In this document: in pieces, positions 8,751 through 40,834 of the stretch | Layout: the number at the start of each line of letters is the position of its first letter | Position numbering within the stretch: the first letter of the stretch is position 1 | The notes under the pieces: model-generated | The model's input: only the letters and a program-made list of their open reading frames with translations | Told to the model about the DNA's origin: nothing | Databases searched by the model: none | Made by a program: the position numbers and the translations under genes | Assembly: GCA_014803575.1 (NCBI GenBank) | Contig: JAAVBO010000003.1 | Span: forward strand, 87,165-151,164 | Direction: 5' to 3' | Source: a bacterium | GTDB taxonomy: Bacteria; Pseudomonadota; Alphaproteobacteria; Rs-D84; CACZYB01 | Length of the DNA: 64,000 nt

Positions 8751-8764
8751 CAAAAATAACGAAC
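8751..8764. repeat. Right arm of the 14-bp inverted repeat
   Basis: Reverse complement of 8598-8611. Confidence 0.5.
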
Positions 8765-11084: not shown

Positions 11085-11087
11085 AAA

Positions 11088-12386: not shown

Positions 12387-12389
12387 AAT

Positions 12390-14498: not shown

Positions 14499-14807
14499 GA
14501 AAGATATTAGGTTTATAGAATATATTCTATCGGTAAGAAATGAAAATCAATATAAGATACTAAGAATATTAGGGTTTAAAATTAAATTTAAAAGAAAAAA
14601 TAAATAATTATCAATTACTTATATGCTGAAAATCAAAGATTATATTTCTTTCGGTAAGATATTATTTTGGATTTTTAATTCAATTATTTCTTGATAATTA
14701 TAGAATTATACTTAAACTAATATTTAGTAAACAAGAAAAATATAATTGAGAAGAAAATTTTTTACAGTTTATTTTAAAACTGCAAAACATTTTTTGAAAG
14801 GTAGATT

Positions 14808-15899
14808 ATGTCTATATCTTATGTATTACAAACTCAACATAAGACTTTTAATGCAAATTTTCATACAGGGAAAATAGTATATGGTGAAAATAAAGAATTT
14901 AACTGGATTTATGATTGTGGAAAGAGTAATTTGGTTCGGCAATATTTAAAGGAAGTTGATAAAGTTGATTTGATTTTTATCTCTCATTTTGATAGAGATC
15001 ATATTAATGGACTTCCTATACTTTTAGCTGATCCTAAGGCAGAAAATGCACAAATAGTTGTGCCATATTTGACAGATGAAGATATTGCTATTTTATTCAG
15101 TGGAAATTTTTATTCATCAATAAAACAAAAGGAACGACAAGATGCTTTTTATAAATTTATGAATGAATTGTTAGAAATACAATCTCAGGAAAAGTTTGAG
15201 AAAGAGTTTGTTTATGATTTATCAAAAGATGATGAGAAGAGTGATAAAAATGATAAAGAGTGTAACGGACAAAAAATCATTCCTATTGTTGGAAATAATT
15301 GTGGTTTTGCAATGGAAGTAAAGTTTCCAAATGATGAAATATGGGCTTTTAAAACTCATGTTTTTGAAGATAGTAAATTAAGAAAATCAATGCAGAATTT
15401 GTTAAAAGGTTCAACACTGAAAAAAGAATTAAGGGATAATTTTAATGAGTTTAAGGAAAAATTCAAAAAAGAGTATAAGAAAGAGATACAAAAAATAAAG
15501 AAAGAATTGGGAGGAGAATCAAGAAATGTTATGACAATGTCCATGATTTCAATGCCTGAAAAAATAATATATTGTCATATCGATTGTGCTCCTCTTGCTT
15601 GGTTGCATACAGGAGATGCGTATCTATCTGACATTAATATTTGGAAACAATTTTTAGCTTTTTTGATTCCTTACAGATGGAGGATAAATGTTTGTGTGTT
15701 GCCTCATCACGCTTCAGTAAAAAGTGAAAATAAAAAATTGTATAGAATGCTAGATGAAATGTGTAATTATATTGTTACTCCGTCCTCAAGAGTTTCATTT
15801 TCTTATCCTTCGGTTAGAAACCTGTTTTTTGTTAATTGGTTAAGTTTTGAAACTATTTATAAACCGGATTATTTTATATATTCTCATTTTATATTTTAG
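14808..15899 (+). CDS. MBL-fold metallo-hydrolase with a ComEC-like HxDxDH motif
   Basis: LIFISHFDRDHINGLPIL, compared with the ComEC beta-lactamase-domain motif HADQDH. Confidence 0.45.
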   Translation: MSISYVLQTQHKTFNANFHTGKIVYGENKEFNWIYDCGKSNLVRQYLKEVDKVDLIFISHFDRDHINGLPILLADPKAENAQIVVPYLTDEDIAILFSGNFYSSIKQKERQDAFYKFMNELLEIQSQEKFEKEFVYDLSKDDEKSDKNDKECNGQKIIPIVGNNCGFAMEVKFPNDEIWAFKTHVFEDSKLRKSMQNLLKGSTLKKELRDNFNEFKEKFKKEYKKEIQKIKKELGGESRNVMTMSMISMPEKIIYCHIDCAPLAWLHTGDAYLSDINIWKQFLAFLIPYRWRINVCVLPHHASVKSENKKLYRMLDEMCNYIVTPSSRVSFSYPSVRNLFFVNWLSFETIYKPDYFIYSHFIF

Positions 15900-16192
15900 A
15901 AATTGTTGATTAAATATATATCTTGATTCCGGTAATTTTTATTGTTATTATTATATTAATTATGGAAAAGGGATTAGGAATATGAAAAAAATAAATGAGC
16001 TTTTGAAAATAAAACCTTCAATAGAAGAGTTTGAAAATTGTGTGAAAATTGGTAAGAATTTTTGGAAAAATTCTATGAAGGAACAATGTAAGTTGGTTGA
16101 AAAACAAAAGGAAGAGCATAGAAAATTAAAACCATCTCCTGAATTGTATAAGATAGAATTTACGTTATAAAATTGATTTAAAAAAAGGTAAA

Positions 16193-16642
16193 CTAAATAC
16201 GATTTAATTTATGATTTTTAAGAAAATTTTTGTTTGATAACATTAAGTTTTCAGGAAGATTATTTATATCAAACCATTTCCATTCGGCACATTTATTTCG
16301 TTCCATAACTTTTGGTTCTCCCTTATATTTTTTACAAAAAAGATGTAGTGTTATGTAATGTTTTTCTGTTTCTTTGAAAAAGTCATTAGTAACGCCTTCC
16401 AGCCACACATCGTTTGCGTTAATTGTAAGGTTTGTTTCTTCTTTTGCTTCACGAATTGCAGCTTCTTCGTTTGTTTCACCGAATTCCATATGACCACCAG
16501 GTGGACACCATGTATTAAATCCGTGTGGACTTTTCCTTAATCCCAATAATACTTGATTATGTTCATTGAAAATATATAATCCGACACCAACGCGAATACT
16601 TTTTTCCATAATTTTTCCCTTCTTATTCCTTCCTTTCCCCAC
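16193..16642 (-). CDS. NUDIX hydrolase
   Basis: Nudix box GGHMEFGETNEEAAIREAKEETNL. The true start is probably MEKSIRV at ~16609. Confidence 0.75.
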   Translation of the reverse strand: MGKGRNKKGKIMEKSIRVGVGLYIFNEHNQVLLGLRKSPHGFNTWCPPGGHMEFGETNEEAAIREAKEETNLTINANDVWLEGVTNDFFKETEKHYITLHLFCKKYKGEPKVMERNKCAEWKWFDINNLPENLMLSNKNFLKNHKLNRI

Positions 16643-16908
16643 AAATACCGAATATGAGTTTTAGGTTATATCGTTTTTTGTGGGTGAGGTGTATGCCTGT
16701 TGAGCTTATTACTATGACAGTTTTTAGAATCCAAATTCTTACGTAGTAGGATTTGTGTTTAAGTTTTATTTTTTCCTTTGTTCGATATTCAGAACCGTCC
16801 GGATTTTCGATTTCTGTGCTTTTCCCGAAACCGTATTTGTTGTTGTCAAAGTCCAAACCGTATTCAATATATATCATAAATTTATGATACTATAAATTAT
16901 AGGTTGTA

Positions 16909-23589: not shown

Positions 23590-24072
23590 ATGTTAATAAG
23601 AAAAAATGATTCCGGACGTTCCATAGTTGAAATGCTTGGTGTCTTGGCTATTATGGGTGTTATCACTGTTATGGGTATTTCCGGTTATTCCCAAGCAATT
23701 GGAAAAATCAACAGAAATAAAGTTGTTGAAGATGTAACAAGAATCGTTCAAGAGGTTAGGGGACTTTATGCCGGTAAAACTGATGTTTATACAAAGGTTC
23801 CTGCTGGATCGGAAACTGATGATTTGTTACTTTCCATTGGATTTAGAAGATCATCTGATAAGCATCCGTTTGGTGGTGTTTATTACATATCTCCTGCGAC
23901 TGAGGAAGATAGCGGTGCAAAAAGATATTTCAATGTTAATATTACAGGTTTGGATAAACAGGATTGTTTCTATCTATGTACATCTAATTGGGAAGGAACA
24001 CACGAAGATTGTGATACTACTAAGGCTTGTGGTTCAGATAGTGACAATACTTTGGCTTTATCATTTGAATAA
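23590..24072 (+). CDS. Type IV pilin / pseudopilin-like protein
   Basis: Class III leader with a processing site G|RSIVE (Glu at +5), followed by the hydrophobic helix MLGVLAIMGVITVMGISGY. Strong RBS aaggagaagagaATG. Confidence 0.65.
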   Translation: MLIRKNDSGRSIVEMLGVLAIMGVITVMGISGYSQAIGKINRNKVVEDVTRIVQEVRGLYAGKTDVYTKVPAGSETDDLLLSIGFRRSSDKHPFGGVYYISPATEEDSGAKRYFNVNITGLDKQDCFYLCTSNWEGTHEDCDTTKACGSDSDNTLALSFE

Positions 24073-24135: not shown

Positions 24136-25503
24136 TCAGAATCGTTGGTTAAGTGTCATTTCTATGGCACTTTTTTCATATTCGTGTTGCCATACGTTGG
24201 AATTTTTATCTGTGTAGGTATAAGTAATGGTTGGCGAGAATCCCCAAAAACTTAATTTTCTGTTTGATAGAGATAATGAGTATTTTCTTGTAATATCTTT
24301 TTCTTTTATTTCTTCAAACTTTAAGTTTTTTACAAACCATCTTTCCTTATCATAATTTGTGTATAATATGGAAGGTTCAACATACATTGTGAATCCGTAT
24401 GGAAGTTCTATGCCAAAACCTATTGCATAGCTGTTTCTTGTATTGGAATAAATTCGTTCCTTTGTATTTTCAATTTCATATCCTGTTCTGAAAATTAAAT
24501 ATTTTGAGGCATCGAACATATATGATAATCTGGCATTAATTCCGCGAGTATCTCCATCCAAAATTTCGCCATAATCATCATATCTTGTTGGCATATAAGA
24601 AAGAGTTAAACCTCCGGATAGACTTCTTGTAAAATCATAACCGGTATTTATTTTTAATCCGACTGCGTAGCTGTAAGGTTGGTGGGCAAGCCATCTTCTG
24701 TATGCGGAAGGTCCAGCAAAAATTTCTCCATTTTTCCAAACATATTTTGGACCGAAATTATAACTTAAATAAAGATCGTCATATTCTTTTTTATTGTATG
24801 TATTTGAATAAAGCATAGCTTCATTTCTTAATCGCCATTTATCATTAATTAAAAATTCATAACTTCCGCCGAGGGAAACATTAAAACCTATGGCTTTTTC
24901 TTTATCTGATAATTGATTACAAAGTACGCCCCACATAGTCATAATACATTGTTCGCCACCGGTTGCGTTGTTGATATTATCATCCGGTGCGGCGCCGATA
25001 TTAAACCAGATATTCCAATTTTTGTTTTGTCGTGCGACATAAATATATTTTGCGATTTCTTGTTTTACAGGTGGAGGAAGAGTTTCGTCTGTTGCTGCTA
25101 ATCTTAAATGATAATCAGCTCTGTACCATGATTTTTGTAGCATATAAAGTTGTGCGAGTTTGAATCTTATTGATGATATATTTGGTTGGTAATCAAGGAT
25201 GAATCTTAAAATTTCAATTGCATCATCTATACGATTTTCAAGGGTTGCGATTTCAGAGAGAAGATATAGACGTTCTATTTCCAATTCCTTTACATTGAAA
25301 GGAGATTTTAGAAGTAGTGTTTTTGCACTGTCATATTCTTTATTTTTAATAAATTCTTTTGCTAAATTTATTATTTGTATGGGATTTAATTTGATAATTT
25401 TTTCAGAAGTTTCTGTATCGGGAATAGGAGTAATTTCCTCTGCCTTAATATCAAAAGATATTAAGGAAAAAATTACTCCTATGACTATAATAAATAACTT
25501 CAT
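24136..25503 (-). CDS. Outer-membrane TPR plus beta-barrel protein resembling Slam (surface lipoprotein assembly modulator, DUF560)
   Basis: Signal peptide, then an N-terminal TPR-like region, then a C-terminal region of alternating aromatic beta-strand patterns ending in a terminal Phe (LNQRF). The NWNIWFNIGAAPDDNINNA segment matches the DUF560 barrel start as I recall it. Confidence 0.55.
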   Translation of the reverse strand: MKLFIIVIGVIFSLISFDIKAEEITPIPDTETSEKIIKLNPIQIINLAKEFIKNKEYDSAKTLLLKSPFNVKELEIERLYLLSEIATLENRIDDAIEILRFILDYQPNISSIRFKLAQLYMLQKSWYRADYHLRLAATDETLPPPVKQEIAKYIYVARQNKNWNIWFNIGAAPDDNINNATGGEQCIMTMWGVLCNQLSDKEKAIGFNVSLGGSYEFLINDKWRLRNEAMLYSNTYNKKEYDDLYLSYNFGPKYVWKNGEIFAGPSAYRRWLAHQPYSYAVGLKINTGYDFTRSLSGGLTLSYMPTRYDDYGEILDGDTRGINARLSYMFDASKYLIFRTGYEIENTKERIYSNTRNSYAIGFGIELPYGFTMYVEPSILYTNYDKERWFVKNLKFEEIKEKDITRKYSLSLSNRKLSFWGFSPTITYTYTDKNSNVWQHEYEKSAIEMTLNQRF

Positions 25504-25625
25504 TTAATTATAATTAACGTTTTTTTGATACATATAATTTATATCTGAAATTTATGTATGTCAATAAAGTCTCAACATTTATTTCTCAATAAAATTAATC
25601 AAAAAAACGTCTCCCTTTTTTTTTG
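25504..25625 (-). promoter_or_regulatory. Intergenic module, copy 1 (inverted relative to copies 2 and 3), with TTGACA-N17-TAAATT oriented toward the Slam gene
   Basis: On the minus strand the -35 is at 25564-25559 and the -10 at 25541-25536; the Slam start codon is at 25503. The reverse complement of this region aligns with 27064-27184. Arm sequences are degenerate (aacgttttttt / aaaaaaacgtc). Confidence 0.5.
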
Positions 25626-27035
25626 TTACTTACGTTTTGCACCGAATATGATATCCCAGTAAGTTGCACCTTTCCATGTTTCTTTACCAGAATTATCGTA
25701 ATCAGTCCATCCCCAACCGCCAGAATATCTTCCAACTGCTTCAGAAGGATCCTTATCAGCACCATAATATGCAGTTAATAAAGTCTCTGAATCCGGATAC
25801 ATAGGATATATTGTACCGTCTTCATCTTCATGTATAAAATGTTCTTTTGTATAATAGTCGAACTTTTTACCATCAGCTGTATATTCTGATGAAATATCAT
25901 CACCTTCTTTTGTTACAGTAACATCATACCAGTTATTAAATTTGAAATTTGCTACTTCTTTCATTGTTGCACCCGGTGTGACAGTAAGAGATACAGTTCC
26001 ATCTAAATCCATATAAGCAAGATCTTGTTCGTTGCTTGTAAGATTATAGCTTTCATCCATAATGTTACCCAAAGCACGACCTTCAAATGTGAAATTATCA
26101 GTTATATTTTCAATTTTTCTTTTTTCATTTCCGCCAAAGAAAAATACGGTTGCACTTTCTTTATTTTTGTAATCATTTACAAAATTATCCTTCATCATAC
26201 CGAATTGAGCATAGGATAGTTCCATACTGTCACCGCCAAGGGTAAGTTCGTATGTGTGATTTCCTTTTTTCTTTTCTCCTTTAAGAAGACCGGTATTATC
26301 TTTTCTAAGGTCGGATAATTCAAATTCTAAATCCTTTACATTTATGCCGTTTGCATCTATTTTTATACCTTTCGCATTACCATTTTCATCAACAGTAAAT
26401 TGTATAACACTGTCTTCTTGTTCTATATTAGATGGGAATTTGAAATCTTTTGAAAGATCATATTTTACTGCTGTGAATTTATCTTTATTTTCTGTTATTG
26501 CAGTTTTTATATCTTCGGCTTTTTCAATAATAGAATCTATAATATTGTCAGCTTTTGCGATTTCGTTTGCAATTTCTTTACCAACAAAAATAGTTAATCC
26601 CTGTGTAATAGCTGTTTTGAAAATGGTTTCATCTTCTAACTTTTCTGTAATAGTGTTTAAGATTTCTTTATCTACATTTATCCAATTTGCATAAATTTGA
26701 ATAAGATTATATTTTTTTTCTGTTTCGCTTAGTCCTGTTGCTTTTGCGGATTTAGAAGTTGCATTTCTTGCATTTGAATAATTAGATGCAGAGGCAGTTA
26801 AAGATTCATTTACAGATACAATTTTATCATAATTTGATGTATCAATAGGAGCCCCAAGCTCTTTTTCTGCCATAGCAACAATTTCTTTTTTATTATCTGA
26901 TTGAACAGAGAATGAAGAAACTGTTGTAGTAGGCAAAGTTGTATTTGGAACGGAGTTTCCGCCACCGTTACCACCACCGCAAGCGGTAAGTATGGTTGAT
27001 AGAGCGATTAAGCTTATTTTTAAATTATTTTTCAT
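25626..27035 (-). CDS. Putative surface lipoprotein, paralog 1 (TbpB-like C-terminal barrel; candidate Slam substrate)
   Basis: Lipobox LTAC, a GGGNGGGNSVPNTTLP linker, and a C-terminal FKFNNWYDV motif. The protein ends in IIFGAKRK, matching the TbpB C-terminus (...VVFGAKRQ) as I recall it. Confidence 0.55.
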   Translation of the reverse strand: MKNNLKISLIALSTILTACGGGNGGGNSVPNTTLPTTTVSSFSVQSDNKKEIVAMAEKELGAPIDTSNYDKIVSVNESLTASASNYSNARNATSKSAKATGLSETEKKYNLIQIYANWINVDKEILNTITEKLEDETIFKTAITQGLTIFVGKEIANEIAKADNIIDSIIEKAEDIKTAITENKDKFTAVKYDLSKDFKFPSNIEQEDSVIQFTVDENGNAKGIKIDANGINVKDLEFELSDLRKDNTGLLKGEKKKGNHTYELTLGGDSMELSYAQFGMMKDNFVNDYKNKESATVFFFGGNEKRKIENITDNFTFEGRALGNIMDESYNLTSNEQDLAYMDLDGTVSLTVTPGATMKEVANFKFNNWYDVTVTKEGDDISSEYTADGKKFDYYTKEHFIHEDEDGTIYPMYPDSETLLTAYYGADKDPSEAVGRYSGGWGWTDYDNSGKETWKGATYWDIIFGAKRK

Positions 27036-27063
27036 ATTAATTTCCTTTCAGTTTTTTATATTA

Positions 27064-27184
27064 GTCAAAAAAAAGGTACGTTTAAATTGACCGATTTTAT
27101 TAAAAAATAAACATTAGGATTTTATTGACATACACGAAATTAGGATATAAATTATATATGTCAAAAAAAAACGTACCTTTTTTT
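27064..27184 (+). promoter_or_regulatory. Intergenic module, copy 2: 16-bp inverted-repeat arms flanking a TTGACA-N17-TAAATT promoter that currently points antisense
   Basis: The arms are aaaaaaaaggtacgttt (27067-27083) and aaaaaaaaacgtaccttttttt (27163-27184). The -35 is at 27125-27130 and the -10 at 27148-27153, both on the plus strand. Confidence 0.5.
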
Positions 27185-27226
27185 ATCACTTTATTACTGA
27201 ATGAAACTACTCCTTATTTGTTAAAG

Positions 27227-28738
27227 TTATTTACGTTTTGCTCCGAAGACTGATTCAAACATATATTCTGTTCCTTCAATCTCATCGCGGAGATGTAATC
27301 TTCCAACAACTTCTTCTAATTCATTCATATCACCATAATACTCATCTTCAATGAAGTGATCTCTCTGATTGAAATCTATTTCTTTAAATTTATTAAAATC
27401 TCCATATATGTCATCTCCCGTTAATGTAATTTGACCATTGTTATAGTTGACATCATAGAAATTATCAAATTTAAGATTTAAATTTTTATTTAGGGAATCA
27501 TCTTTGAATGAAACGGTTAAATCAGCATTTCCATTAAGTATGAGTGCATTTTTACCTTCGATACTAGCGGTACCAATAGCTTTTCCTGTAAATGATATTT
27601 CATTATTATCGTTTAATACATACACAAGCTCATCTTTGGATGCGATAAGTTTTTCTTTGTATCCGCCAAAGAAAACATCAGAAGTTTCTGTATGAGGTAA
27701 TTCAACATTATTATCAGGATTATTGGATAGTGGACGGTTTGCCGATAATATTGTTTTATATAATGATCCAAAGTCAGAGTATGATAGTCCAACGGATTTT
27801 CCCCCAAGGATTATTTTATATTGATAATTGATATCAACTCCATCATCTTTTATATCACTAGAATCATATTCATTATCATCACTAATTTTATTTGCAAAAT
27901 CAATTAATCCTGTGTCTTTATCATAAACATAATATTTATAAGATTCCGTTTGATTTTTTTCTCCTATAATAAAGCCGTTTTTATCTTCTTTGAAATCATT
28001 AATATCAAAATCTATTGTTAAGTCTGTATCAAATTCATCTGATGGATTATTACGTTCATTATGTTCATAATGCATTCCTGTGACTTTATTATCCTTCACT
28101 GTATACTTAAATATGTTACGAGTTGTTGCATATTGATCATCTTTATTATCGGATAATTCTACAGTTGCAAGAGAAAATGTTTCTAATGTAGCTTGTTTTT
28201 TAATATCCTCGACATCTCCTGATATATCACCAATAGTTTCAAAAGTTGATTTTATGTTGTCATCTGTTAACTTTTCTACTATATCGTTTTTGTTTATAAG
28301 TTTTAGGGCATCAATAAATTTTTGTTTGTTTTCCCTTAAAACTTCTTCTGATTGGTCAGCCAAATTTTCAAGGACATCTTTCAATTCGTCGACATAACTT
28401 AATTTTACTTGGGCTATGCGATATTTTTTTTCGGCATCAGTCAAATTTTGGGATGAAACTTTTGCATTTGAAGTTGCACTTCTGTTTGGATTGTTTTTAT
28501 GAATTGCTTCGTATTTAGAAGCTACTTCTTCTGTGTATTCGGCGACATCTATTTTACCAAGATGTCCTTCAACATAATCAATAATATCTGATTTATTATC
28601 TACACTTGTTTTCATAGCGGTTATAGTTTCTGCACGTGGTAAAGTTGTATTTGGAACGGAGTTTCCACTTCCACCACCACCGCAAGCAGTAAGTAAAGTT
28701 GATAGAGCAATTAAGCTTATTTTTAAATTGTTTTTCAT
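27227..28738 (-). CDS. Putative surface lipoprotein, paralog 2
   Basis: The true start is MKNNLKISLIALSTLLTAC at 28738; the ORF-track start at 28837 runs through the upstream module. The protein ends in SVFGAKRK and has a KFDNFYDV motif. Confidence 0.55.
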   Translation of the reverse strand: MKNNLKISLIALSTLLTACGGGGSGNSVPNTTLPRAETITAMKTSVDNKSDIIDYVEGHLGKIDVAEYTEEVASKYEAIHKNNPNRSATSNAKVSSQNLTDAEKKYRIAQVKLSYVDELKDVLENLADQSEEVLRENKQKFIDALKLINKNDIVEKLTDDNIKSTFETIGDISGDVEDIKKQATLETFSLATVELSDNKDDQYATTRNIFKYTVKDNKVTGMHYEHNERNNPSDEFDTDLTIDFDINDFKEDKNGFIIGEKNQTESYKYYVYDKDTGLIDFANKISDDNEYDSSDIKDDGVDINYQYKIILGGKSVGLSYSDFGSLYKTILSANRPLSNNPDNNVELPHTETSDVFFGGYKEKLIASKDELVYVLNDNNEISFTGKAIGTASIEGKNALILNGNADLTVSFKDDSLNKNLNLKFDNFYDVNYNNGQITLTGDDIYGDFNKFKEIDFNQRDHFIEDEYYGDMNELEEVVGRLHLRDEIEGTEYMFESVFGAKRK

Positions 28739-28766
28739 TTTGTTTCCTTTCAGTTTTTTTATATTA

Positions 28767-28886
28767 GTCAAAAAAAAGGAACGTTTAAATTGACCTATTG
28801 TATTGAAAATAAATATTAGGATTTTATTGACATACACGAATTTAGAATGTAAATTATATATGTCAAAAAAAAACGTTCCTTTTTTT
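28767..28886 (+). promoter_or_regulatory. Intergenic module, copy 3: arms with a compensatory T-to-A change and the same antisense-pointing promoter
   Basis: The arms are aaaaaaaaggaacgttt and aaaaaaaaacgttccttttttt (ggaacg/cgttcc, versus ggtacg/cgtacc in copy 2). The -35 is at 28827-28832 and the -10 at 28850-28855. About 90% identical to copy 2 over ~170 bp. Confidence 0.5.
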
Positions 28887-28900
28887 ATTACTGAATGAAA

Positions 28901-30001
28901 CTAGTCTCTTTTCAATCCAAATGCGGCGTTGAAGTCAATGATGGAAATTCCAGGTCTGTTTTCATCTTTGAAATCATTACCTGTATATTCTTCACCATCT
29001 CTCATAGCTTCTATGATTTCCATACCGCCACCGGCTTCAACAACTGTGTTTGTTAAATCATCATAATAGTAGTTAAGTGTAAAATTATTTAGTCCGCCGA
29101 GAGCATTTTTTTCTTCGCCGTTTTTAAATTTGAAAAGGTCATCTTCTCCTGTGAATTTTTCAAATTTTACATTAACATCAGATTCACCAAATTTGTCAGT
29201 AACAACTACATCATACCAATTATCAAAATTCATTGTTAAAGTAGATGTTGGGTTTGCTCCATTGTCAAAATGAAGTGTTGCTTTACCGTCAAGATTTATA
29301 TTACCTTCTTTGGAACCTTGATTTGCAATGTTTTCTTCGGCACTTACTCCTCCAATTGCTCTACCGGTAAAGTCAATAGATGCGATGTCTTTTTCAATTT
29401 TATCCGGAGAAATTTCTCTTTCTTTATATCCGCCGAACACACCTAATTGATATTCATCTAAGTCATCACTTTCTTCTTTTGGTATATACTTACCGTTTTC
29501 ATCAGTACCATATTCAATAGATTTACCATTTAGGCGGAAGAAGTCAAAATAACTTAAACCAAGTTCTTTTCCCATTGATTCAAAGGTTAGTTCTTGATAC
29601 ATCTCATGATCTCCTTCTGGACCATCATAGATAAATTTATTTTCATTATTTCTTTTAAATACTGTTTCTCCGTTTTCATCAGAAAAAGATACAATTTTTC
29701 CATTATCATCTACGTTGAATTTAAAACTCGAATTTTCACCTTCATCAAATACAGTAAATTTTATGTCGCTGATATCAGCATATTGTTTAGCACGTGATGT
29801 TGATGTAGCGGATCTTACGCTTTCGGGTTTTTCCTTTGTAAGGTCAATACGACTTTTCAAAGATGTTATTTGTCTGTTGGATGCTTCGACAGTAGTAGGC
29901 AAAGTTGTGTTTGGAACGGAGTTTCCGCCACCATTACCACCACCGCAAGCGGTAAGTAAAGTTGATAGAGCAATTAAGCTTATTTTCAAATTATTTTTCA
30001 T
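28901..30001 (-). CDS. Putative surface lipoprotein, paralog 3
   Basis: The same MKNNLKISLIALSTLLTACGGGNGGGNSVPNTTLP N-terminus, a C-terminal MNFDNWYDV motif, and an ending AAFGLKRD. Confidence 0.5.
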   Translation of the reverse strand: MKNNLKISLIALSTLLTACGGGNGGGNSVPNTTLPTTVEASNRQITSLKSRIDLTKEKPESVRSATSTSRAKQYADISDIKFTVFDEGENSSFKFNVDDNGKIVSFSDENGETVFKRNNENKFIYDGPEGDHEMYQELTFESMGKELGLSYFDFFRLNGKSIEYGTDENGKYIPKEESDDLDEYQLGVFGGYKEREISPDKIEKDIASIDFTGRAIGGVSAEENIANQGSKEGNINLDGKATLHFDNGANPTSTLTMNFDNWYDVVVTDKFGESDVNVKFEKFTGEDDLFKFKNGEEKNALGGLNNFTLNYYYDDLTNTVVEAGGGMEIIEAMRDGEEYTGNDFKDENRPGISIIDFNAAFGLKRD

Positions 30002-30047
30002 AGTAATTTCCTTTCATTAGTTTATTATTATTTACTTTGTGTTAAAT

Positions 30048-31607
30048 TTATTGACGTTTCGCACCGAAGACATATTCTAAACTTGTGTTTATTTTACCTT
30101 CCTTATCTTTATATTCTATAATTCCACCACCAACTGCTTCTGTTGGAGAGTGTGCATTTTCACCATAAAGATTTACAAAACTTGATTGATTTGTTGAATT
30201 ATTAAGCATATCAATAATCATTTGATTTTCTAAACTTCCTATATTATCGTAAAATTTAGAATCTTCTATTTTGTTATATCTTATATCATATCCTCCACTT
30301 ATAAAATGTCCATCTGGGGCAATTGTAGTATTTGGTGAATATACTACTTCTTCTTCATATTTTGGAGTAATATTCATACTAATTCCGTTGTCCCAATTAA
30401 CATTTAAAGATGTTGTTGTGTTCATATTTGAAAAATGAACATTTAAAGATGTATCTCCTTGTAAAAATTTATCTATTCCAGATACATTTAAATTACCGTA
30501 TGCTTTACCTTTAAATGTTACATCTCCTAATTCATAAGATTTACTTATATCATAGAATGGAAATAATAAAGCACTTTGATTTTTTTCATTAAATCTGTTT
30601 TGATTTGTATTATATCCAAGTGTTGCCAGATAATGGTTTGACGATTTATTATTATCAACTTGGATATAAGTAAAATCAGCGTATGATAATCCTACGGATG
30701 TTCCTCCTAAAATAATTTTGTAATTATTTTTATCATCAGATGTTTTTATTATTTTATTCCCATCTTCATCTATTATATCATCTTTGTTAAAAGTTATGGT
30801 TTTATTTGTTATATCAGAGTTAAATGACAAACTATATATATCTCCATTACTGTCAGTATTATATTTTAAAGTAAAACTTTCATCATCTCTTAATGGAGTA
30901 AACTGTAATTGATCTATACTTATGTCTTTATAATTATTTTCAATAAAATCAAGTCGTTTTGTATAGTATGAGGGATCAAATGCGTAAATAGTTGCATTTT
31001 TATTTAAATTTATAGTATCTACTATCATTTCAACACTATTTGAATACTTTATGAAATTATTCATGTCATCTTCTGTTATTATTTTTCCATATTTAGTTTC
31101 ATATAAATATTTAGTAACCCTATTTTGAAAATCAACCATTCCAAGAAAAGCTTCACTATAAATTGTATTAAAATAAACATAATTATAAAGAAATTCGTTG
31201 ATAAAATTTTCATCATTTTTTGATATTTCTTCTAATTGTTCTAATCCATTATCTTCTAATGCTATTTCGACATGTTTTCTAATATAGTTTATATTATCTA
31301 TTAATTTTTTAGTTATTGTATCTATTATTTCATCTTCTGATAATGAATTGTACTTATCATCTTTAATTAAAATATCATAAGTATTTTTATCCAAGAGTTC
31401 ATCGTGAACATTTTGGAACCATGTAGAATTTTTTACAGTTTGAAAAGCATTAGAATTTGATTTTATTGAAATCTTTGCTGAATTTGTATCAGAAATTGTC
31501 GGTAAATTTGTATTTGGAATAGAACTTCCGTCACCACTTCCACCACCACCGCAAGCAGTAAGTAGGGTTGATAGAGCAATTAGGCTTATTTTAAAATTGA
31601 TTCTCAT
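30048..31607 (-). CDS. Putative surface lipoprotein, paralog 4 (first gene of the array)
   Basis: MRINFKISLIALSTLLTACGGGGSGDGSSIPNTNLP N-terminus and an ending YVFGAKRQ. It lies 46 bp upstream of paralog 3. Confidence 0.5.
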   Translation of the reverse strand: MRINFKISLIALSTLLTACGGGGSGDGSSIPNTNLPTISDTNSAKISIKSNSNAFQTVKNSTWFQNVHDELLDKNTYDILIKDDKYNSLSEDEIIDTITKKLIDNINYIRKHVEIALEDNGLEQLEEISKNDENFINEFLYNYVYFNTIYSEAFLGMVDFQNRVTKYLYETKYGKIITEDDMNNFIKYSNSVEMIVDTINLNKNATIYAFDPSYYTKRLDFIENNYKDISIDQLQFTPLRDDESFTLKYNTDSNGDIYSLSFNSDITNKTITFNKDDIIDEDGNKIIKTSDDKNNYKIILGGTSVGLSYADFTYIQVDNNKSSNHYLATLGYNTNQNRFNEKNQSALLFPFYDISKSYELGDVTFKGKAYGNLNVSGIDKFLQGDTSLNVHFSNMNTTTSLNVNWDNGISMNITPKYEEEVVYSPNTTIAPDGHFISGGYDIRYNKIEDSKFYDNIGSLENQMIIDMLNNSTNQSSFVNLYGENAHSPTEAVGGGIIEYKDKEGKINTSLEYVFGAKRQ

Positions 31608-31640
31608 TTTTTTTACCTTTCATTAGTTTTTATTTGTTCA

Positions 31641-31660
31641 AAAATAATGATCGTTATTTT
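31641..31660. repeat. Near-palindromic A-tract/CG-core element (aaaataatgatcgttatttt)
   Basis: 17 of 20 positions match 31817-31836 (aaaataacgatcgttttttt), which has a perfect AACGATCGTT core. Confidence 0.4.
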
Positions 31661-31816
31661 AGGTATATACTTTTTTTTAGAAAATTAATTTTATTTTTTA
31701 GAGAGTTTTAAAATTTAAACGACGAAATTATATTGAATAATCAAATAGATAAATAATCAGTAAAAATATTGCTTGAAAATATTCTTATCCAAATATAAAA
31801 TATTTTTGATTGTTCC

Positions 31817-31838
31817 AAAATAACGATCGTTTTTTTTT
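31817..31838. repeat. Palindromic A-tract / AACGATCGTT / T-tract element
   Basis: Partner of 31641-31660. Together they bracket ~155 bp upstream of lipoprotein paralog 4. Confidence 0.4.
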
Positions 31839-31856
31839 ACCGATATTTTTTTTATT

Positions 31857-33116
31857 TTATTGATATCTTAATGCTTCGATTGGGTCCAGTTTGGTTGCCT
31901 TTATTGCAGGGAAAAGTCCGGAGGATATGCCTACAATAATTGCGACAGAAAAACTTATGATTACGGTTATTAATGATATAGGTACATTTTTATCTAAGAC
32001 TGCGCCTGCGATTTGTGACAGGGCTATACCTATAATCATACCTATCATACTTCCTATGAAAGATATAAGTATGGATTCCGTTAAAAATTGTCCCATAATG
32101 GAGCTGTTTTTTGCACCTATTGCCTTTCTAATACCTATTTCCCTTGTTCGTTCGGTGACGGAAACAAGCATCATATTCATAATACCTATACTTCCAACGA
32201 TAAGAGAAATTGAGGCTATGGAGGCAAGAAGGATTGAAAGGTAAGTTCCGACGGAGCGCATAGTTTCTTGGATTTCGGTCATATTATCAATACGAAAATC
32301 ATTTTCAGCGGTTGGTTTTAATCGTCTTGATTCACGAAGAGCATTTTCAATTAGTTTTGTTGCGCGTTCCATATTATTTTCGTTATCTACCTGTGCCATT
32401 ATGTAGTTTACTCGGTTAGGAATGTTTGTTCCCTGAACACGGCGACGATAGGTTGTTATCGGCATAAGGACTATATCATCTTGGTCCATACCGCCCATAC
32501 CTTGACCTTTGGATTTAAGGATACCCTTTACAATGAATGGAACATTTTTTATTCGCATAGTTTTTCCAAGTGGATTTTCGTCGTGGAAAAGTTCATCTGC
32601 GATAGTTTTTCCTATTACTATGTAAGAAGATGCTGCCTTTACATCGCGGTCGGTGAACATAGCCCCTTTTTCAATTTCCCAGTTGCCGGTGTACAGGTAG
32701 TCTGGGGTAGTTGCGACTATGGAGCCGGCGTAGTTTTCATTTCCGTAGACTAGCTGTCCTGCACCATTTACCATAGGAGAGACAGCTGATATGTGCTTTA
32801 TGTTTTTTATAACGTCGGCGTCATTGGTTTTTATTATAGTCATACCGGAACCCTTTACACCGGAAGTTGCGACAAATTCCGGACGAATGATTAGTAGGTT
32901 ACTTCCCATTCCGGCAAGACTTTCATTTATCATATTTGACACGGTTTGACCTGCGGCAACCATTATAACTACGGCACAAACTCCTATAATAATACCTAGG
33001 GTTGTAAGAAATGAGCGGAGTTTGTTTGCCTTTATTGAAATCCATGATTCACGGAATACTGCCTCTGCCATATGTGTTTTTTTGTTATCGGTTGCTATTT
33101 TTGTGTTGCAAGTCAT
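31857..33116 (-). CDS. ABC transporter permease, MacB/FtsX-type (large periplasmic domain plus a C-terminal FtsX 4-TM bundle)
   Basis: One N-terminal TM, a ~220-aa periplasmic region, then three C-terminal TMs ending ...KATKLDPIEALRYQ. Typical MacB/LolCE topology. Confidence 0.8.
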   Translation of the reverse strand: MTCNTKIATDNKKTHMAEAVFRESWISIKANKLRSFLTTLGIIIGVCAVVIMVAAGQTVSNMINESLAGMGSNLLIIRPEFVATSGVKGSGMTIIKTNDADVIKNIKHISAVSPMVNGAGQLVYGNENYAGSIVATTPDYLYTGNWEIEKGAMFTDRDVKAASSYIVIGKTIADELFHDENPLGKTMRIKNVPFIVKGILKSKGQGMGGMDQDDIVLMPITTYRRRVQGTNIPNRVNYIMAQVDNENNMERATKLIENALRESRRLKPTAENDFRIDNMTEIQETMRSVGTYLSILLASIASISLIVGSIGIMNMMLVSVTERTREIGIRKAIGAKNSSIMGQFLTESILISFIGSMIGMIIGIALSQIAGAVLDKNVPISLITVIISFSVAIIVGISSGLFPAIKATKLDPIEALRYQ

Positions 33117-33826
33117 TATCTTTTCCCCTTAAATTCAGAAACTTTACCATCGTAGTGAAGAACGCCGTCAAGTATGTAGATAAGGCGGTCGGCATAATTT
33201 GCAATATCCGGTTCGTGGGTGACAAGGACAATGGTTTTTCCTTCTTTATTTAAAGAAGTAAACAAGTCCATTATTTCAATGGAAGTTTTTGTATCCAAAT
33301 TTCCGGTTGGTTCGTCGGCAAGAATTAAAGTAGGTTCGTTGATTAGTGCTCTTGCAATTGCAACACGTTGTTGCATACCACCGGATATTTGATTTGGAAA
33401 TCGGTCGGTAAATTTTCCAAGTCCTACATGTTCCAGCATATTTTTTGCCTTTTCATGTTGGCAAGTAAGGTTGTATCCCGAATAAATCAGTGGAATACAA
33501 ACGTTATCAAGCAGAGTTCTTTTCATAAGAAGATTGAACCCTTGAAATACAAAGCCGATTTTTTTATTTCTTATTTCAGCAAGTTGGTCATCGTTCATAG
33601 ATGATACAATTTGCTCATCAATTTCATATATACCTGATGTTGGTTTATCAAGACAGCCTAGTGTATTCATAAGTGTGGATTTACCACTTCCCGATGGACC
33701 CATAATAGCAACGAATTCACCTTCGTTGATTGTGAAATTGATATCCTTTAATACCGGATATGAATTACCTCCATCCATAAAGTAGGTTTTATATAGATTT
33801 TTTACTTCTATGACTTTTTTTGCCAT
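33116..33826 (-). CDS. ABC transporter ATP-binding protein (MacB/LolD-type)
   Basis: Walker A GPSGSGKST, signature ISGGMQQRVAIARAL, Walker B LILADEPTGNLD, and H-loop VTHE. The start is probably MAKKVIEV at 33826. Confidence 0.9.
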   Translation of the reverse strand: MAKKVIEVKNLYKTYFMDGGNSYPVLKDINFTINEGEFVAIMGPSGSGKSTLMNTLGCLDKPTSGIYEIDEQIVSSMNDDQLAEIRNKKIGFVFQGFNLLMKRTLLDNVCIPLIYSGYNLTCQHEKAKNMLEHVGLGKFTDRFPNQISGGMQQRVAIARALINEPTLILADEPTGNLDTKTSIEIMDLFTSLNKEGKTIVLVTHEPDIANYADRLIYILDGVLHYDGKVSEFKGKR

Positions 33827-33836
33827 ATTGGTTTTC

Positions 33837-35066
33837 CTATCTGCGTCTTCCGCCACCAGGTCCGCCAACTCTTATTGCAGGAGTTGCTTTGGAGCTTTTT
33901 GCGGTTCCATTGTAGTTAAACTCCGAAATTACAAAGTCATTTTCGTTTAGTTCGTCGGAAATTATTTCTGTTATGCTTCCGTTTGTGATACCTTTTTTTA
34001 TTTTGATTGCATTTAGTGTTTTTGATTCATCATCGTAGGTATAAACGAAACCTTCACCGGCACCTAATCTTGAATTTTCCGGATAGATAACTTTATCTCG
34101 CAAAACGTCTTCCGGTTTGAATTGAAGGGTTATGTTATCAAGGATTTTTACATCGTTTTTTTCTTGTGTATTAATTTCAACGAATGCAGTCATTCCAGGG
34201 AGAAGTTTGTTATCCTTGTTATCAATTTTTATTATAACTGTGTAGATAACGACATTTTGTTCTGTTGTTGGGTTAAGGCGGATTTGGTCAACGTAACCTT
34301 TGAATGTTTCAAGTGGGAATGCGTCGACAGTAAAATCAACAGATTGTCCTTTTTTGATTGTTCCTATGTCGGCCTCGGAAATGCTTGCTTCTATTTGCAT
34401 TTTCTTTAAATCTTCGGCAATTGTAAATAATGTTGGAGCGGAGAATGATGAGGCTATGGTTTGACCTTCCTCGACATCTCTTGAAATAATGACACCTGAT
34501 ACAGGAGAGGTTATTCTTGTATAATCCATATTTCGCTTACTTCTTTCCAAATCGGAAGTTGCAGAGGTGTAGTCGGCTTTGGCAGTAGTGAGTTCTGTTT
34601 CTGCCTGATCAAGTTCAACCTTTGCTATGTAGCCGGCATTGTAGAGTTGTTCAATTCTTTCCTTATTCAATTTTGCGAGTTCGTATTTTGCCTTTGCTTG
34701 AGTTTGTCTTGCTTGAGAAGCGTTTACATCTTCTACGAACAAAGATTTATCAACCTCAGCAAGTAATTGACCGATTTTTACATTGTCATTATAGTCTGCG
34801 TAGATTTTATCGATAATGCCAGATACTTGGGCACCGACACTTACAACATTGACTGGATTGACTATGCCTGTTGCACTTACCTTTGATTTTACATCACCTT
34901 TTGTAATTTTAGAAAATTCAAAATTGTTTGGTTTTAATTTTAATTCAGAGGGAGTTGAAAACAAAATTTTTTTACCAATTAACAATATTACGCATATTAA
35001 AATTATGTAAAAAATTCTTTTTTTCCAGTTGGCTTTTTTTCCAGCTGTGTTATTTGTTGTTTCCAC
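33837..35066 (-). CDS. Periplasmic adaptor (membrane fusion protein, HlyD/MacA family)
   Basis: An N-terminal TM, coiled-coil hairpin regions and a beta-barrel/lipoyl pattern typical of MFPs. Confidence 0.75.
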   Translation of the reverse strand: METTNNTAGKKANWKKRIFYIILICVILLIGKKILFSTPSELKLKPNNFEFSKITKGDVKSKVSATGIVNPVNVVSVGAQVSGIIDKIYADYNDNVKIGQLLAEVDKSLFVEDVNASQARQTQAKAKYELAKLNKERIEQLYNAGYIAKVELDQAETELTTAKADYTSATSDLERSKRNMDYTRITSPVSGVIISRDVEEGQTIASSFSAPTLFTIAEDLKKMQIEASISEADIGTIKKGQSVDFTVDAFPLETFKGYVDQIRLNPTTEQNVVIYTVIIKIDNKDNKLLPGMTAFVEINTQEKNDVKILDNITLQFKPEDVLRDKVIYPENSRLGAGEGFVYTYDDESKTLNAIKIKKGITNGSITEIISDELNENDFVISEFNYNGTAKSSKATPAIRVGGPGGGRRR

Positions 35067-35083
35067 TTTTATCCCTCCTTTTG

Positions 35084-36460
35084 TTATTGTAATGAACCTA
35101 AGTTTTTAAGGTTTAAATCACCTGCGGCTTTAAGTAGTGCAATTTTTGCAGTATATAAATCATATTGTGCAGAAATTGATTGTTTTCTTGCTGAAACAAG
35201 TTTTGATTGTGCTTCCATAAGGCTGATGATGTCGCCTTTACCTGCTTGGTATGAACCGAGAGCAACCTGTTCATTTTCGTTTGCACTTTCAAGCATTTTT
35301 GTTGCAAGTTCAACGCTCTTTATACTTGTTTTGTAATCGTTGTATGCGTTGACTATGTTTAATTCTATGTCTTGTTTTAATTGTTGTAGAGCTTCTTTTT
35401 CGGCAGCATATGAATATTTTGCATTTCTAAGAGAGTAAGTGTGTTCGAATCCCGTGAATATAGGAAGAGAAACTCTTACACCTATTGCATCGCTTTCTCT
35501 ATCTCTTTTTATGCCACCAAAGTCAATGTCTTCGTCATACCAGTTTTTGTTTGCGAAACCGGAAATTGTTGGAAAGTATGCTGCGCTTGCCTGTCTTACC
35601 TTTGCATAAGAGGCCTTTACATCAGCAATTTTTGCCATTAAATCAGGACGTTTTTCCATTGCAATGTCTATTATTTCATCAACAGATTTTGAGATGAGTT
35701 CGTTGGTTGTATTTGCATAAGAAGTAACAAGTTTTATATCCATACTTGGTGGAAGACCAAGAAGTTTTGCAAGGTTTGCCTTTGCAAGACGAACGGCTTG
35801 CTCCTGTTTAACGGTATCAAGTTGACGTTGAATGTAGGTTGTTTCTGTTTGAAGAGTATCTGCCTTTGATGACATACCTAGTTCAAATTTTTTGAATGCA
35901 AGTTCAAATGATTTTTTACTTGCTTCCTCATCGGCCTTAACTGCAGCGAGTTCTTCAATAGAAGAAAGAGCGTTATAGTATGCAGAAATTACGTTATATG
36001 CAACGGTTTGCAATGTATTGTTGTATTGGAAATTCATAGAGTTCATAGTTTGGAAAGTTTGTTCAACCTGTGCTTCACGATTTCCGAAATCATATAATAA
36101 CCAATTTAAAGATAGACCGGCACTTAAATCCTTACCGTTTGTTTCAACCGGTGGTATACCTGTGTAATCTTCATTATTACTGTCTTGATATGTTGCGGTT
36201 GCATCGATTTGAGGATAGTATGATGCGTATGAACGTTTGTATGCGGTTGAGCCGACCTTTGTATTTAACCATGCTTGTCTTGTTTCAGGGTTATTGCACA
36301 TTGAAAGTTCAATAACATCTGCAAGATTAAGTTCATCGGTTTCAACATTTTTTGAAATGTTGCAAGATTTACTTATTTCAAATGTTGATTTTTCCAATGT
36401 TTCGGCATTTGCTATTGTTGATATAAATAAAGTTGATAGTAATAATATAATTTTTTTCAT
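35084..36460 (-). CDS. TolC-family outer-membrane efflux protein
   Basis: Signal peptide and the two repeated halves of the TolC/OEP fold with long helical segments. 458 aa. Confidence 0.8.
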   Translation of the reverse strand: MKKIILLLSTLFISTIANAETLEKSTFEISKSCNISKNVETDELNLADVIELSMCNNPETRQAWLNTKVGSTAYKRSYASYYPQIDATATYQDSNNEDYTGIPPVETNGKDLSAGLSLNWLLYDFGNREAQVEQTFQTMNSMNFQYNNTLQTVAYNVISAYYNALSSIEELAAVKADEEASKKSFELAFKKFELGMSSKADTLQTETTYIQRQLDTVKQEQAVRLAKANLAKLLGLPPSMDIKLVTSYANTTNELISKSVDEIIDIAMEKRPDLMAKIADVKASYAKVRQASAAYFPTISGFANKNWYDEDIDFGGIKRDRESDAIGVRVSLPIFTGFEHTYSLRNAKYSYAAEKEALQQLKQDIELNIVNAYNDYKTSIKSVELATKMLESANENEQVALGSYQAGKGDIISLMEAQSKLVSARKQSISAQYDLYTAKIALLKAAGDLNLKNLGSLQ

Positions 36461-40222: not shown

Positions 40223-40834
40223 ATGACAATATATACATATTTAAGGGTATCAACAGACAAGCAGGATTATTATAATCAGCGGGTTGGAATTATTGATTTT
40301 TGTAATAAAAACGGATGGAAGATTGATAAAGAAATTATTGATGACGGTGTTAGTGGTGTAAAGGAACCTATTAACAGAAAACTTGGTAAATTATTAAAAG
40401 AAATAAAATGTGGTGATATTTTGGTGGTGTCGGAAATTTCACGGTTGGGAAGAAAGCTTTTTATGCTTTTTCGCATACTTGAAAATCTGCTTAATAATGG
40501 GGTTAATGTTTATTCCGTGAAGGATGGATATTCTCTTGATAATTCTATACAAAGTAAGGTGTTGGCGTTTGCTTTTGGAATGGCGGCTGAAATAGAGCGT
40601 GATATGATTTCGCTTAGGACGAAGGAGGCTTTGGCTAAAAAAAGGAAAGATGGAGTTGTCCTCGGACGACCAAAAGGTAGAAAAAATAAAAGGTTGAAGC
40701 TTTGTGATAAGGTTGAGGATATAAGGTATTTGTTGGATTTACAGATTCCGAAAATAAGAATTGCAAAAAAATTGAAAGTTTCAAAAAATACTTTGAATAG
40801 GTTTATTAAATTATATGATATAAAAAAATGTTAA
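40223..40834 (+). CDS. Small serine recombinase (Hin/Gin invertase / resolvase family)
   Basis: YLRVSTDKQ catalytic-Ser motif, GDILVVSEISRLGR and GRPKG motifs, and a C-terminal HTH (IAKKLKVSKNTLNRFIK). 203 aa. Confidence 0.85.
   Translation: MTIYTYLRVSTDKQDYYNQRVGIIDFCNKNGWKIDKEIIDDGVSGVKEPINRKLGKLLKEIKCGDILVVSEISRLGRKLFMLFRILENLLNNGVNVYSVKDGYSLDNSIQSKVLAFAFGMAAEIERDMISLRTKEALAKKRKDGVVLGRPKGRKNKRLKLCDKVEDIRYLLDLQIPKIRIAKKLKVSKNTLNRFIKLYDIKKC

Follow-up and report, generated by a model that had tools for sequence, protein, structure and literature searches.

Locus description

The window analysed here is a stretch of 64,000 nucleotides (contig JAAVBO010000003.1 of assembly GCA_014803575.1, positions 87,165 to 151,164) from an alphaproteobacterium of the GTDB lineage Rs-D84. 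The subject of this work is a tandem array of four lipoprotein genes within it, SLP-A, SLP-B, SLP-C, and SLP-D (A to D), together with the adjacent Slam gene of a type 11 secretion system (T11SS). Coordinates refer to the window unless a contig is named. The order on the minus strand is MacAB-TolC (31857-36460), a 249-nucleotide spacer, the lipobox open reading frames (ORFs) A, B, C, and D, and then Slam.

SLP-A (30048-31607, minus strand) is the first gene of the array and is a lipobox (LTAC-GGG) ORF encoding a lipoprotein of 519 amino acids. SLP-B (28901-30001, minus strand) encodes a 366-amino-acid lipoprotein composed of a tether, a beta handle, and an 8-stranded barrel, without a helical domain. 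SLP-C (27227-28738, minus strand) is a lipobox ORF encoding a lipoprotein of 503 amino acids. Its true start is the ATG at 28738 and not the GTG upstream; gene calls in other assemblies are 503, 506, or 507 amino acids in length. SLP-D (25626-27035, minus strand) encodes a 469-amino-acid lipoprotein with a tether, an alpha-helical domain (approximately residues 49 to 197), a handle, and a barrel, and has orthologues at 98, 87, 71, and 67% identity. The lipobox L(L/I)TAC-GGG, with a signal peptide, is present in all four array genes.

The Slam gene (24136-25503, minus strand) encodes 455 amino acids and is the presumed translocon for the four lipoproteins. It matches PF04575 (SlipAM/DUF560) over the full length of the model (1-288 of 288) with an E value of 3.7e-36 and 125.6 bits (cut-off 22). 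Its N-terminus gives two matches, to PF24575 TPR_Slam (21.8 bits, cut-off 35.2) and to TPR_19 (18.9 bits, cut-off 25), both of which are below threshold. Slam adjoins its putative lipoprotein cargo, and the gap between them is 0 to 4 nucleotides in six of the comparison contigs introduced below (L007, L006, L009, L014, L015, and L017).

Each array gene begins with a copy of a 5’ module, defined here as the ribosome-binding region and the approximately 110 nucleotides that follow, which encode the signal peptide, the lipobox, a glycine tether, and an (S)IPNTNLP motif. The four copies form repeat family D1 and are located on the minus strand at 31498-31631 (A), 29892-30025 (B), 28629-28762 (C), and 26926-27059 (D). 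The B copy is 93% identical to the D copy, and the tether of the C copy is one codon shorter (GGGGSGN). The 3’ end of the gene is also conserved. The sequence TTCGGTGCAAAACGTAAGTAA, which encodes FGAKRK and the stop codon, is present at 25626-25646 on the minus strand, with further copies at 27227-27247 and 30048-30068 (repeat family D4). An Rfam scan of 25300-32000 gave no credible match.

Array content and breakpoints across strains

Comparison assemblies, referred to here by L numbers, were found by exact-protein look-ups and are independent assemblies. They can be sorted into two groups. Group 1 is a species-level group of three strains, represented by the window (with L001), L002, and L007, whose Slam genes are at least 98.8% identical at the nucleotide level. 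Group 2 is a sister lineage (L006, L009, L014, L015, and L017) with approximately 84% nucleotide identity to group 1 in Slam.

The order macB-A-B-C-D-Slam is present in the window and in L007/L008. The order macB-B-C-D-Slam, which lacks A, is present in L002, L020, and L022, and L021 is likewise without A. Strains with identical or 99%-identical Slam genes therefore differ in the number of array genes (four versus three). The sister lineage has a single gene abutting Slam, which is B-type in L006, L014, L015, and L017 and D-type in L009. Arrays exist in the sister lineage too, because a D-type gene in L028 (1-577) follows a further family member, the 3’ end of which (...ISFGAKRVD) lies 23 nucleotides before the ATG. 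The static array that the preliminary description had held to be incompatible with its mosaic reading was not found: the array has four, three, or one genes, and mosaicism is present.

Differences in copy number and mosaic structure could be produced by metagenome assembly across repeats, and short-read contigs do break within the 5’ modules (L003 starts at window position 28694, L005 starts at 26955, and L024 ends 7 nucleotides into B). Against this, the L002 array is base-for-base identical in L020, and its 5’ region is identical in L021 and L022, giving four independent assemblies that differ in sample and assembler. The L007 type is seen again in L008, and the window type in L001, L003, and an NCBI metagenome-assembled genome. 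Because each haplotype recurs in independent samples, the array differences are not attributed to assembly, an explanation that is extremely unlikely.

The junction in L002 where A is lacking lies inside a stretch of approximately 20 nucleotides, in the ribosome-binding region, that is common to A and B. In the sequence, the boundary of this gain or loss is the ribosome-binding region of the module. A second pair of breakpoints is seen when L009 (D-type) is compared with L017 (B-type) at the same locus. The two contigs share 96% identity upstream and over the first 95 nucleotides of the gene, the gene bodies cannot be aligned, and 95.7% identity resumes from the last 24 nucleotides of the gene into Slam. 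The D-type protein of L009 carries a B-type C-terminus (...FG-LKRAN). The homology of L028 to L009 starts 3 nucleotides before the ATG. Because the breakpoints fall there, the 5’ module on one side and the 3’ end with Slam on the other delimit exchangeable cassettes, and the conserved ends would act as homology arms for cassette events.

Each of the four array genes has an intact ORF in every strain examined, with an ATG start, signal peptide, and ribosome-binding site. A system of silent cassettes and an expression site (vls, vmp, or pilE/pilS type) was rejected since all four genes are complete.

Sequence identity of the 5’ module

The first 100 nucleotides of B (29902-30001) and D (26936-27035) align without gaps and are 94% identical (94.5% over 110 nucleotides by blastn). 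Over the first approximately 100 nucleotides, the B/C and C/D pairs are 89-90% identical, with in-frame 3-nucleotide indels in the glycine tether. The same region of A is 84% identical to B and to D, and 92% identical to C over 74 nucleotides. The preliminary description of this region as almost identical in all four genes is thus accurate for B, C, and D (89-95%) and overstated for A (84-92%). Two cores of the module, 26 and 23 nucleotides in length, have exactly four occurrences each in the 64 kb, where none is expected. Apart from one 51-nucleotide patch in A and C, the 5’ region of approximately 100 nucleotides is the sole significant DNA similarity between any two array genes.

In the window and the databases searched, the module was found only in this lipoprotein family. 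A search of 185,579 species representatives returned one genome with one copy, and a search of JGI metagenomes returned one match, on a 1.2-kb contig; both are family members. Matches to the N-terminus only, in a search of 5.8 billion proteins, were in every case B-type members of the family. The concern that the 5’ identity might reflect a common signal peptide shared genome-wide is answered by the four copies in the window and by the membership of all outside matches in the family.

Identical residues are encoded by identical codons at 77% of positions in the module and at 54% in the remainder of the genes, with the caution that gene pairs are non-independent. For B and D, the values are 85% in the module and 53% elsewhere (p 0.0015). 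The two parts of D also differ in their relatives. The body of D is 39-42% identical to proteins of other species and 27-32% identical to A, B, and C, while its N-terminal 36 amino acids are 91-97% identical to B and C and 47-72% identical to those other-species proteins.

The 5’ modules group by lineage and not by gene type. Across types within a lineage, identity is 93.9% in group 1 (B versus D) and 94.4% in group 2 (b versus d, the sister-lineage genes). For the same type between lineages, identity is 91.4% (B versus b) and 86.3% (D versus d). Lineage-specific synonymous variants are common to different gene types. Exchange between types is also visible within group 1. The tether region of B in L002 contains a linked C-type block of four substitutions and a 3-nucleotide deletion. 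The ribosome-binding region of D, which is non-coding, is C-type in the window and B-type in L002 and L007. In a four-gamete test on the module, 37 of 190 informative site pairs were incompatible.

Purifying selection on the signal peptide, lipobox, and tether for compatibility with Sec, Lol, and Slam, combined with AT-rich codon bias, might give such identity without any exchange between paralogs. The encoded 5’ peptide is nearly invariant, codon bias alone yields 54% identical codons, and the LTACGG and xLP motifs are kept even in distant family members. However, the synonymous identity of the module exceeds this internal baseline. Distant family members have clearly different signal peptides (39-72% identity), and because of this difference the constraint on the signal peptide is regarded as loose. 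The lineage-specific variants shared by different gene types, the linked block with its indel in L002, the exchanged non-coding regions, and the incompatible site pairs also run counter to selection alone. At the level of sequence, purifying selection and codon bias do not by themselves explain the patterns in the module, and this alternative is largely contradicted and improbable.

Recent tandem duplication is a second alternative, in which the bodies diverged quickly under diversifying selection and the 5’ end lagged behind. The tandem arrangement with a repeated upstream module and the raised dN/dS of the array (see below) are in its favour. The gene bodies, in contrast, are 27-34% identical without alignable DNA, and the body of D is nearer to homologues in other species than to its array neighbours. 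B-type and D-type genes both occur in the sister lineage (Slam 84% identical in nucleotides), so the gene types predate the split of the lineages, yet their modules are lineage-specific. Because the gene bodies are old, recent duplication is excluded as far as these comparisons reach, and the alternative is very improbable.

The module is instead most consistent with concerted evolution, for which five lines of evidence agree in giving direct signs in the sequence. By these signs, the module is kept similar among ancient paralogs by short conversion tracts between them.

The tether varies in length among family members, with the forms GGGGSGN, GGGNGGGN, GGGGSGDGSS, and GGGSGSGN. The forms differ in whole-codon steps, with linked substitutions where these are traceable. 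The longest repeat tract in the tether is (GGT)3, and every length difference is a multiple of three. The short repeats were earlier proposed to vary in length, and the lengths do differ, though by whole codons and in a conversion-like manner rather than by slippage. Phase variation by slippage and frameshift at the GGT tether was rejected on the grounds that the tracts are short and all indels are in-frame.

Mosaicism of the gene bodies

The genes that flank the array are approximately 99% identical between strains, with dN of 0-0.005 and dS of 0.02-0.045. The array genes have dN of 0.011-0.079, dS of 0.046-0.154, and dN/dS of 0.24-0.64. Their dN is 7 to 80 times that of the flanking genes, and their dS is raised approximately 2-3 fold in most comparisons. 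The interior of the array contains patches at 38-86% identity within the flanks of approximately 99% identity. The differences in the bodies are strongly clustered, for example 50 of 120 positions at nucleotides 240-360 of B, and more blocks are present in A, C, and D.

No donors for the divergent body patches were found among the array paralogs by BLAST. One patch in the D gene of the window has a 95% match to the D-type gene of the sister lineage. Because the patches are without a donor in the array, the mosaicism of the bodies is attributed to allelic import between strains. The cassette duplication and gene conversion suggested in the preliminary description are accordingly retained for paralog exchange in the 5’ module and ribosome-binding region and for the dynamics of the array, and do not extend to the bodies.

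Protein fold and family

Outside the N-terminus, the bodies of A to D have 27-34% protein identity. C and D can be aligned over their full length at 28% identity (E 7e-34). B lacks only the helical domain, and its sequence can be aligned to the beta-rich parts of the other three. The middle parts, first described as unrelated, are of low identity, but C and D are homologous throughout and B is alignable with the beta-rich parts of the others. The motifs LSY.DFG, F.G.A.G, FDNWYDV, EAVG, and FGAKR of the barrel are common to the proteins. Conservation of the C-terminal barrel thus holds for protein motifs and not for DNA.

In the predicted structure of SLP-B (pLDDT 77.5), the tether is disordered and the rest forms a beta handle and a barrel. 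The AlphaFold model of SLP-D (pLDDT 81.9) has the helical domain, followed by the handle and barrel. The predicted fold is therefore a handle with a C-terminal, soluble, 8-stranded beta-barrel. None of the four lipoproteins matched a Pfam or NCBIfam family at or above the cut-off, and a profile search of the PDB gave no match with E below 0.27, with chance coiled-coil matches only.

Slam genes are known to adjoin lipoproteins whose N-terminal part is variable and whose C-terminus forms an 8-stranded barrel (PMC5449769, PMC12282271). The locus fits this published rule because the predicted structures show a tether, handle, and barrel beside Slam. By predicted fold and gene context, the array proteins are putative Slam cargo.

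The invertible segment upstream of SLP-A

The spacer between macB and A contains a 156-base-pair segment (31661-31816) that lies between two 20-base-pair palindromic repeats. The left repeat (AAAAAAACGATCGTTATTTT) is at 31817-31836 and the right repeat (AAAATAACGATCATTATTTT) is at 31641-31660. The consensus of the palindromes is AAAA(A/T)AACGATC(G/A)TTATTTT, and their architecture is hix-like. The segment of the window is 94.3% identical to the reverse complement of L007 and 63% identical in direct orientation, and the inversion breakpoints fall exactly at the two copies of the repeat. The low macB-A identity between the window and L007 is explained by this inversion. In a survey of orientation, L007, L008, and L023 were inverted and all other finished contigs matched the window.

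A promoter-like sequence (TTGAAA-17-TAAAAT, 31773-31801, plus strand) matches 10 of 12 consensus positions. In the window and L002 types this site is directed away from the array, whereas in L007 it faces SLP-A. Promoter scans found no promoter-like site on the sense strand in the window orientation.

The ends of several contigs fall at the repeats. L008 and L006 begin exactly at the right repeat, and L023 and L008, which are from one sample, have a 55-nucleotide overlap that begins at the right repeat. A simulated mix of both orientations predicts a k=31 in-branch, and the ends of the Logan contigs L026 and L027 fall precisely there. L025 ends 8 nucleotides past the left repeat, and this end is not explained by a mixture of orientations. 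A scan of JGI metagenomes for the left junction of the segment returned nothing. The contig ends are suggestive of mixed orientations in a sample and do not amount to proof.

A candidate invertase is encoded 8.4 kb from the segment. This serine recombinase (40223-40834, plus strand) is 203 amino acids in length and matches PF00239 with an E value of 6e-34. It also matches NF009949 (master DNA invertase Mpi family) with an E value of 4.5e-73 and 245 bits, against a cut-off of 272. All strains examined have this stand-alone gene; in the window, its neighbours are a metallo-beta-lactamase-fold gene on one side and a flavodoxin gene on the other. Its product is 47-49% identical to the recombinase encoded immediately upstream of SLP-Slam in L017 and L009.

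The inversion could be a rare fixed rearrangement, produced by homologous recombination at a palindromic operator-like site, rather than a programmed switch. Orientation follows haplotype in the finished contigs, with L007, L008, and L023 inverted. A second site of the repeat family (described below) has one orientation in three strains, and the promoter calls are not statistically enriched. On the other side stand the exact breakpoints at two 20-base-pair hix-like palindromes, the in-branch ends of L026 and L027, and the 55-nucleotide overlap of L023 and L008 together with the start of L006 at the right repeat. The conserved Mpi-family-like invertase nearby, the related recombinase that abuts SLP-Slam in the sister lineage, and the same repeat family around a promoter-like segment upstream of glycan operons also favour a switch. 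A fixed rearrangement retains an appreciable minority of the weight. The candidate inversion switch is the most novel lead of the locus.

A different inverted-repeat pair was noted in the sister lineage. The sequences ACCACCGTCTAGATTT and AAATAGACGGTGGT, approximately 100 nucleotides apart, are present in L017 (approximately 925-1045), L009 (approximately 520-640), L014, and L015. The pair lies between a gene with Resolvase and HTH_7 domains and the lipoprotein gene, and possibly bounds another invertible promoter. There was no difference in orientation among the four contigs.

Hairpin modules between the genes

A hairpin module of approximately 115 nucleotides has three copies, all of which are within the array; none is present elsewhere in the window. 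The copy upstream of C (28770-28892, minus strand) has a promoter-like site (TTGACA-16-TAAATT), terminal inverted repeats of approximately 16 nucleotides, and an inner palindrome. A second copy precedes D (27067-27190, minus strand), and a third, in the D-Slam interval (25520-25623, plus strand), is inverted and has 78-80% identity in reverse orientation. Over 151 nucleotides, the module that precedes C shares 92% identity with the module that precedes D, in agreement with the approximately 90% identity first reported for these two upstream modules.

The fold of the C-upstream module has a free energy of −32.1 kcal/mol and a z-score of −6.3, and the D-upstream module has a z-score of −5.3. A compensatory double change distinguishes the two copies, with GGAACG/CGTTCC in the C copy and GGTACG/CGTACC in the D copy. 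The promoter-like sites carried by the hairpin modules have the form TTGACA-16/17-TAAATT. In scans for promoters and terminators, matches were not commoner than in shuffled sequence, and they serve only as orientation markers. The modules may function as a promoter, a terminator, or an attachment site.

L007 does not have the copy between D and Slam; only 4 nucleotides separate the two genes there, and they abut as in the sister lineage. In L021, an 8.3-kb element (L021 12652-20991) is inserted in the left arm of the B-C module, between AAAAAGGAAC and GTTTTTTTTTGAC, at approximately window position 28866. The element encodes a 202-amino-acid serine recombinase, an HTH_36 protein, a Hydrolase_2 protein, and many small ORFs. 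The strain otherwise matches L020.

A second repeat pair at a glycan locus

A second repeat pair of the same family as that around the invertible segment is present at 8595-8611 and 8751-8767 (AACGTTCGTTATTTTTG and CAAAAATAACGAACATT, respectively), with 139 nucleotides between the copies. The pair flanks a promoter-like segment containing TTGACT, ahead of a glycosyltransferase/UDP-sugar operon that runs from 9001 onwards. Homologous elements are found at 18958-19137 in L002 and at 20377-20556 in L007, each in front of a different glycan operon. No difference in orientation was found among the window, L002, and L007. An exact-protein search with 7382-8452 returned the window’s own strain only.

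It is tentatively proposed, at somewhat short of an even chance, that in this gut-type alphaproteobacterium a single Mpi-family recombinase (40223-40834) inverts promoter segments at several surface loci, each segment lying between AACG(A/T)(A/T)CGTTATTT palindromes. These would include at least the Slam array (31641-31836) and the strain-variable glycan operon (8595-8767), as a regulon under a master invertase like that of Bacteroides.

The region from approximately 9000 to 16740 is a strain-variable polysaccharide region, both flanks of which are approximately 99% identical. Past window position 16740, the window, L002, and L007 cannot be aligned and contain different sets of glycosyltransferase or rml-like genes.

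Other features of the window

Three further features were noted. A 160-amino-acid protein with a type IV pilin-like N-terminus (GRSIVEMLGVLAIMGVITV) is encoded at 23590-24072 on the plus strand, and its gene lies beside Slam in both lineages; it matched no Pfam or NCBIfam family. A 175-amino-acid ShlB/FhaC-type POTRA fragment (44389-44916, minus strand) is apparently a truncated two-partner-secretion transporter. An RloB-like protein is encoded at 45298-45966 on the minus strand, beside an ORF of 453 amino acids.

Proposed organization of the array

The locus is probably a Slam cargo array in which the 5’ module recombines, cassettes are swapped, gained, or lost at the conserved ends, the bodies diversify separately, and a candidate promoter is invertible. 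Under this explanation, the region would be a T11SS cargo array of an uncultured, low-GC alphaproteobacterium, and each gene would have three parts. The first would be a portable 5’ module consisting of the ribosome-binding region and approximately 100 nucleotides (signal peptide, lipobox, glycine-rich tether, and SVPNTTLP motif). The second would be a variable effector, composed of the helical domain and/or the beta handle, and the third a TbpB-like 8-stranded barrel ending in FGAKR(K).

Cassette replacement has its limits at the end of the 5’ module on one side and, on the other, in the last approximately 20 nucleotides of the gene together with Slam; these ends would serve as homology arms. 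The bodies vary by patchy import from other alleles of the same gene type, with dN and dS both raised. The single adjacent Slam would export all four proteins to the surface, where host or phage may select for diversity. A and B would be driven by the invertible promoter, which the Mpi-like serine invertase would flip and which would be OFF in the window orientation. Each of C, D, and Slam would have a hairpin/promoter module of its own in front of it.

Several points weigh against this explanation. All comparisons are between metagenome assemblies, and the sample is small, with three haplotypes of one species and five or six sister contigs. The module is only approximately 105 nucleotides long, and the differences between lineage and type depend on few sites. 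Because codon identity in the module is 77% and not 100%, selection on the mRNA or the translation-initiation region may contribute. The change at A may have been a gain or a loss. The promoter assignments are consensus matches, with no enrichment over shuffled sequence. The inverted orientation is present in a finished contig from one haplotype only, and the match of the recombinase falls below the NCBIfam cut-off. Surface display of A to D and their dependence on Slam are predictions from gene adjacency and modelled fold.

Comparison with known systems

The array has the arrangement of the known Slam-dependent lipoproteins (TbpB, LbpB, fHbp, HpuA, hemophilin, and PmSLP), in which a lipobox lipoprotein gene lies directly upstream of a DUF560 Slam gene. 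It differs from the TbpB- and fHbp-type cargo in that its proteins have no detectable membership by sequence (Pfam, NCBIfam, or PDB profile search). Three or four cargo genes precede a single Slam here, and A, C, and D have an extra alpha-helical domain. The host here is an uncultured alphaproteobacterium, unlike the Neisseria, Moraxella, and Pasteurellaceae pathogens, and no TonB-dependent receptor was seen adjacent to the array.

PmSLP of Pasteurella multocida has four allele clusters that are approximately 38% identical to each other and occupy the same Slam-adjacent locus in different strains (PMC10075479). These divergent variants at one Slam locus are like the B-type and D-type genes of L017 and L009. 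PmSLP is present as one gene per strain, whereas the window array also places variants side by side in a single genome. The present case further documents, in DNA sequence, the common 5’ module and 3’ end that mark the limits of exchange.

In the lpl tandem lipoprotein cluster of Staphylococcus aureus, a nucleotide stretch conserved in every ORF is the recombination site, with changes in copy number and shuffling of variable regions (Tsuru & Kobayashi 2008, PMC2568036). The likeness to the present array is a conserved stretch within the gene at which tandem lipoprotein paralogs recombine. The conserved stretch of lpl is central, whereas here the very start of the gene is conserved, along with a short segment at its 3’ end. 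Unlike the present array with its Slam, lpl belongs to a Gram-positive host and is without a dedicated translocon gene.

The vsp, vlp, and vsa families of Mycoplasma and the vmp and vls families of Borrelia have a near-identical 5’ region with signal peptide and divergent bodies, and recombine at the conserved ends. They rely either on silent cassettes with a single expression site or on site-specific inversions at the individual genes. In the present array, by contrast, the four genes are complete and in the same orientation.

The Mpi recombinase of Bacteroides fragilis inverts 13 regions, of which seven are polysaccharide promoters (PMC4747536). In that system, the targets of a small serine invertase are short inverted repeats around promoter segments of approximately 150-200 base pairs at several distant surface-structure loci. 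Here, an Mpi-family-like gene is accompanied by two repeat pairs of one family, upstream of a lipoprotein array and of a glycan operon. The present case differs in phylum, in a recombinase that is below the NCBIfam equivalog cut-off, and in a target that is a T11SS cargo array. It is also known from contigs rather than from switching at the level of reads.

Significance

TbpB, fHbp, and PmSLP, which are Slam/T11SS cargo, are major vaccine antigens, and their diversity limits vaccine coverage. The locus described here shows in DNA detail how a short 5’ module and a 3’ end by the translocon gene mark the exchange, stacking, and loss of cassettes while compatibility with export is kept. It also widens the range of multi-cargo Slam arrays to include uncultured commensal Alphaproteobacteria. 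The segment at 31661-31816 is a concrete candidate for inversion-based phase variation of T11SS cargo. If the proposal of a master invertase is true, lipoprotein display would be varied on two time-scales, by a fast ON/OFF inversion and by slower replacement, gain, or loss of cassettes via the 5’ module. The array would then be the first inversion-controlled, phase-variable T11SS cargo array, and its recombinase would be an Mpi-type global switch outside Bacteroidota.

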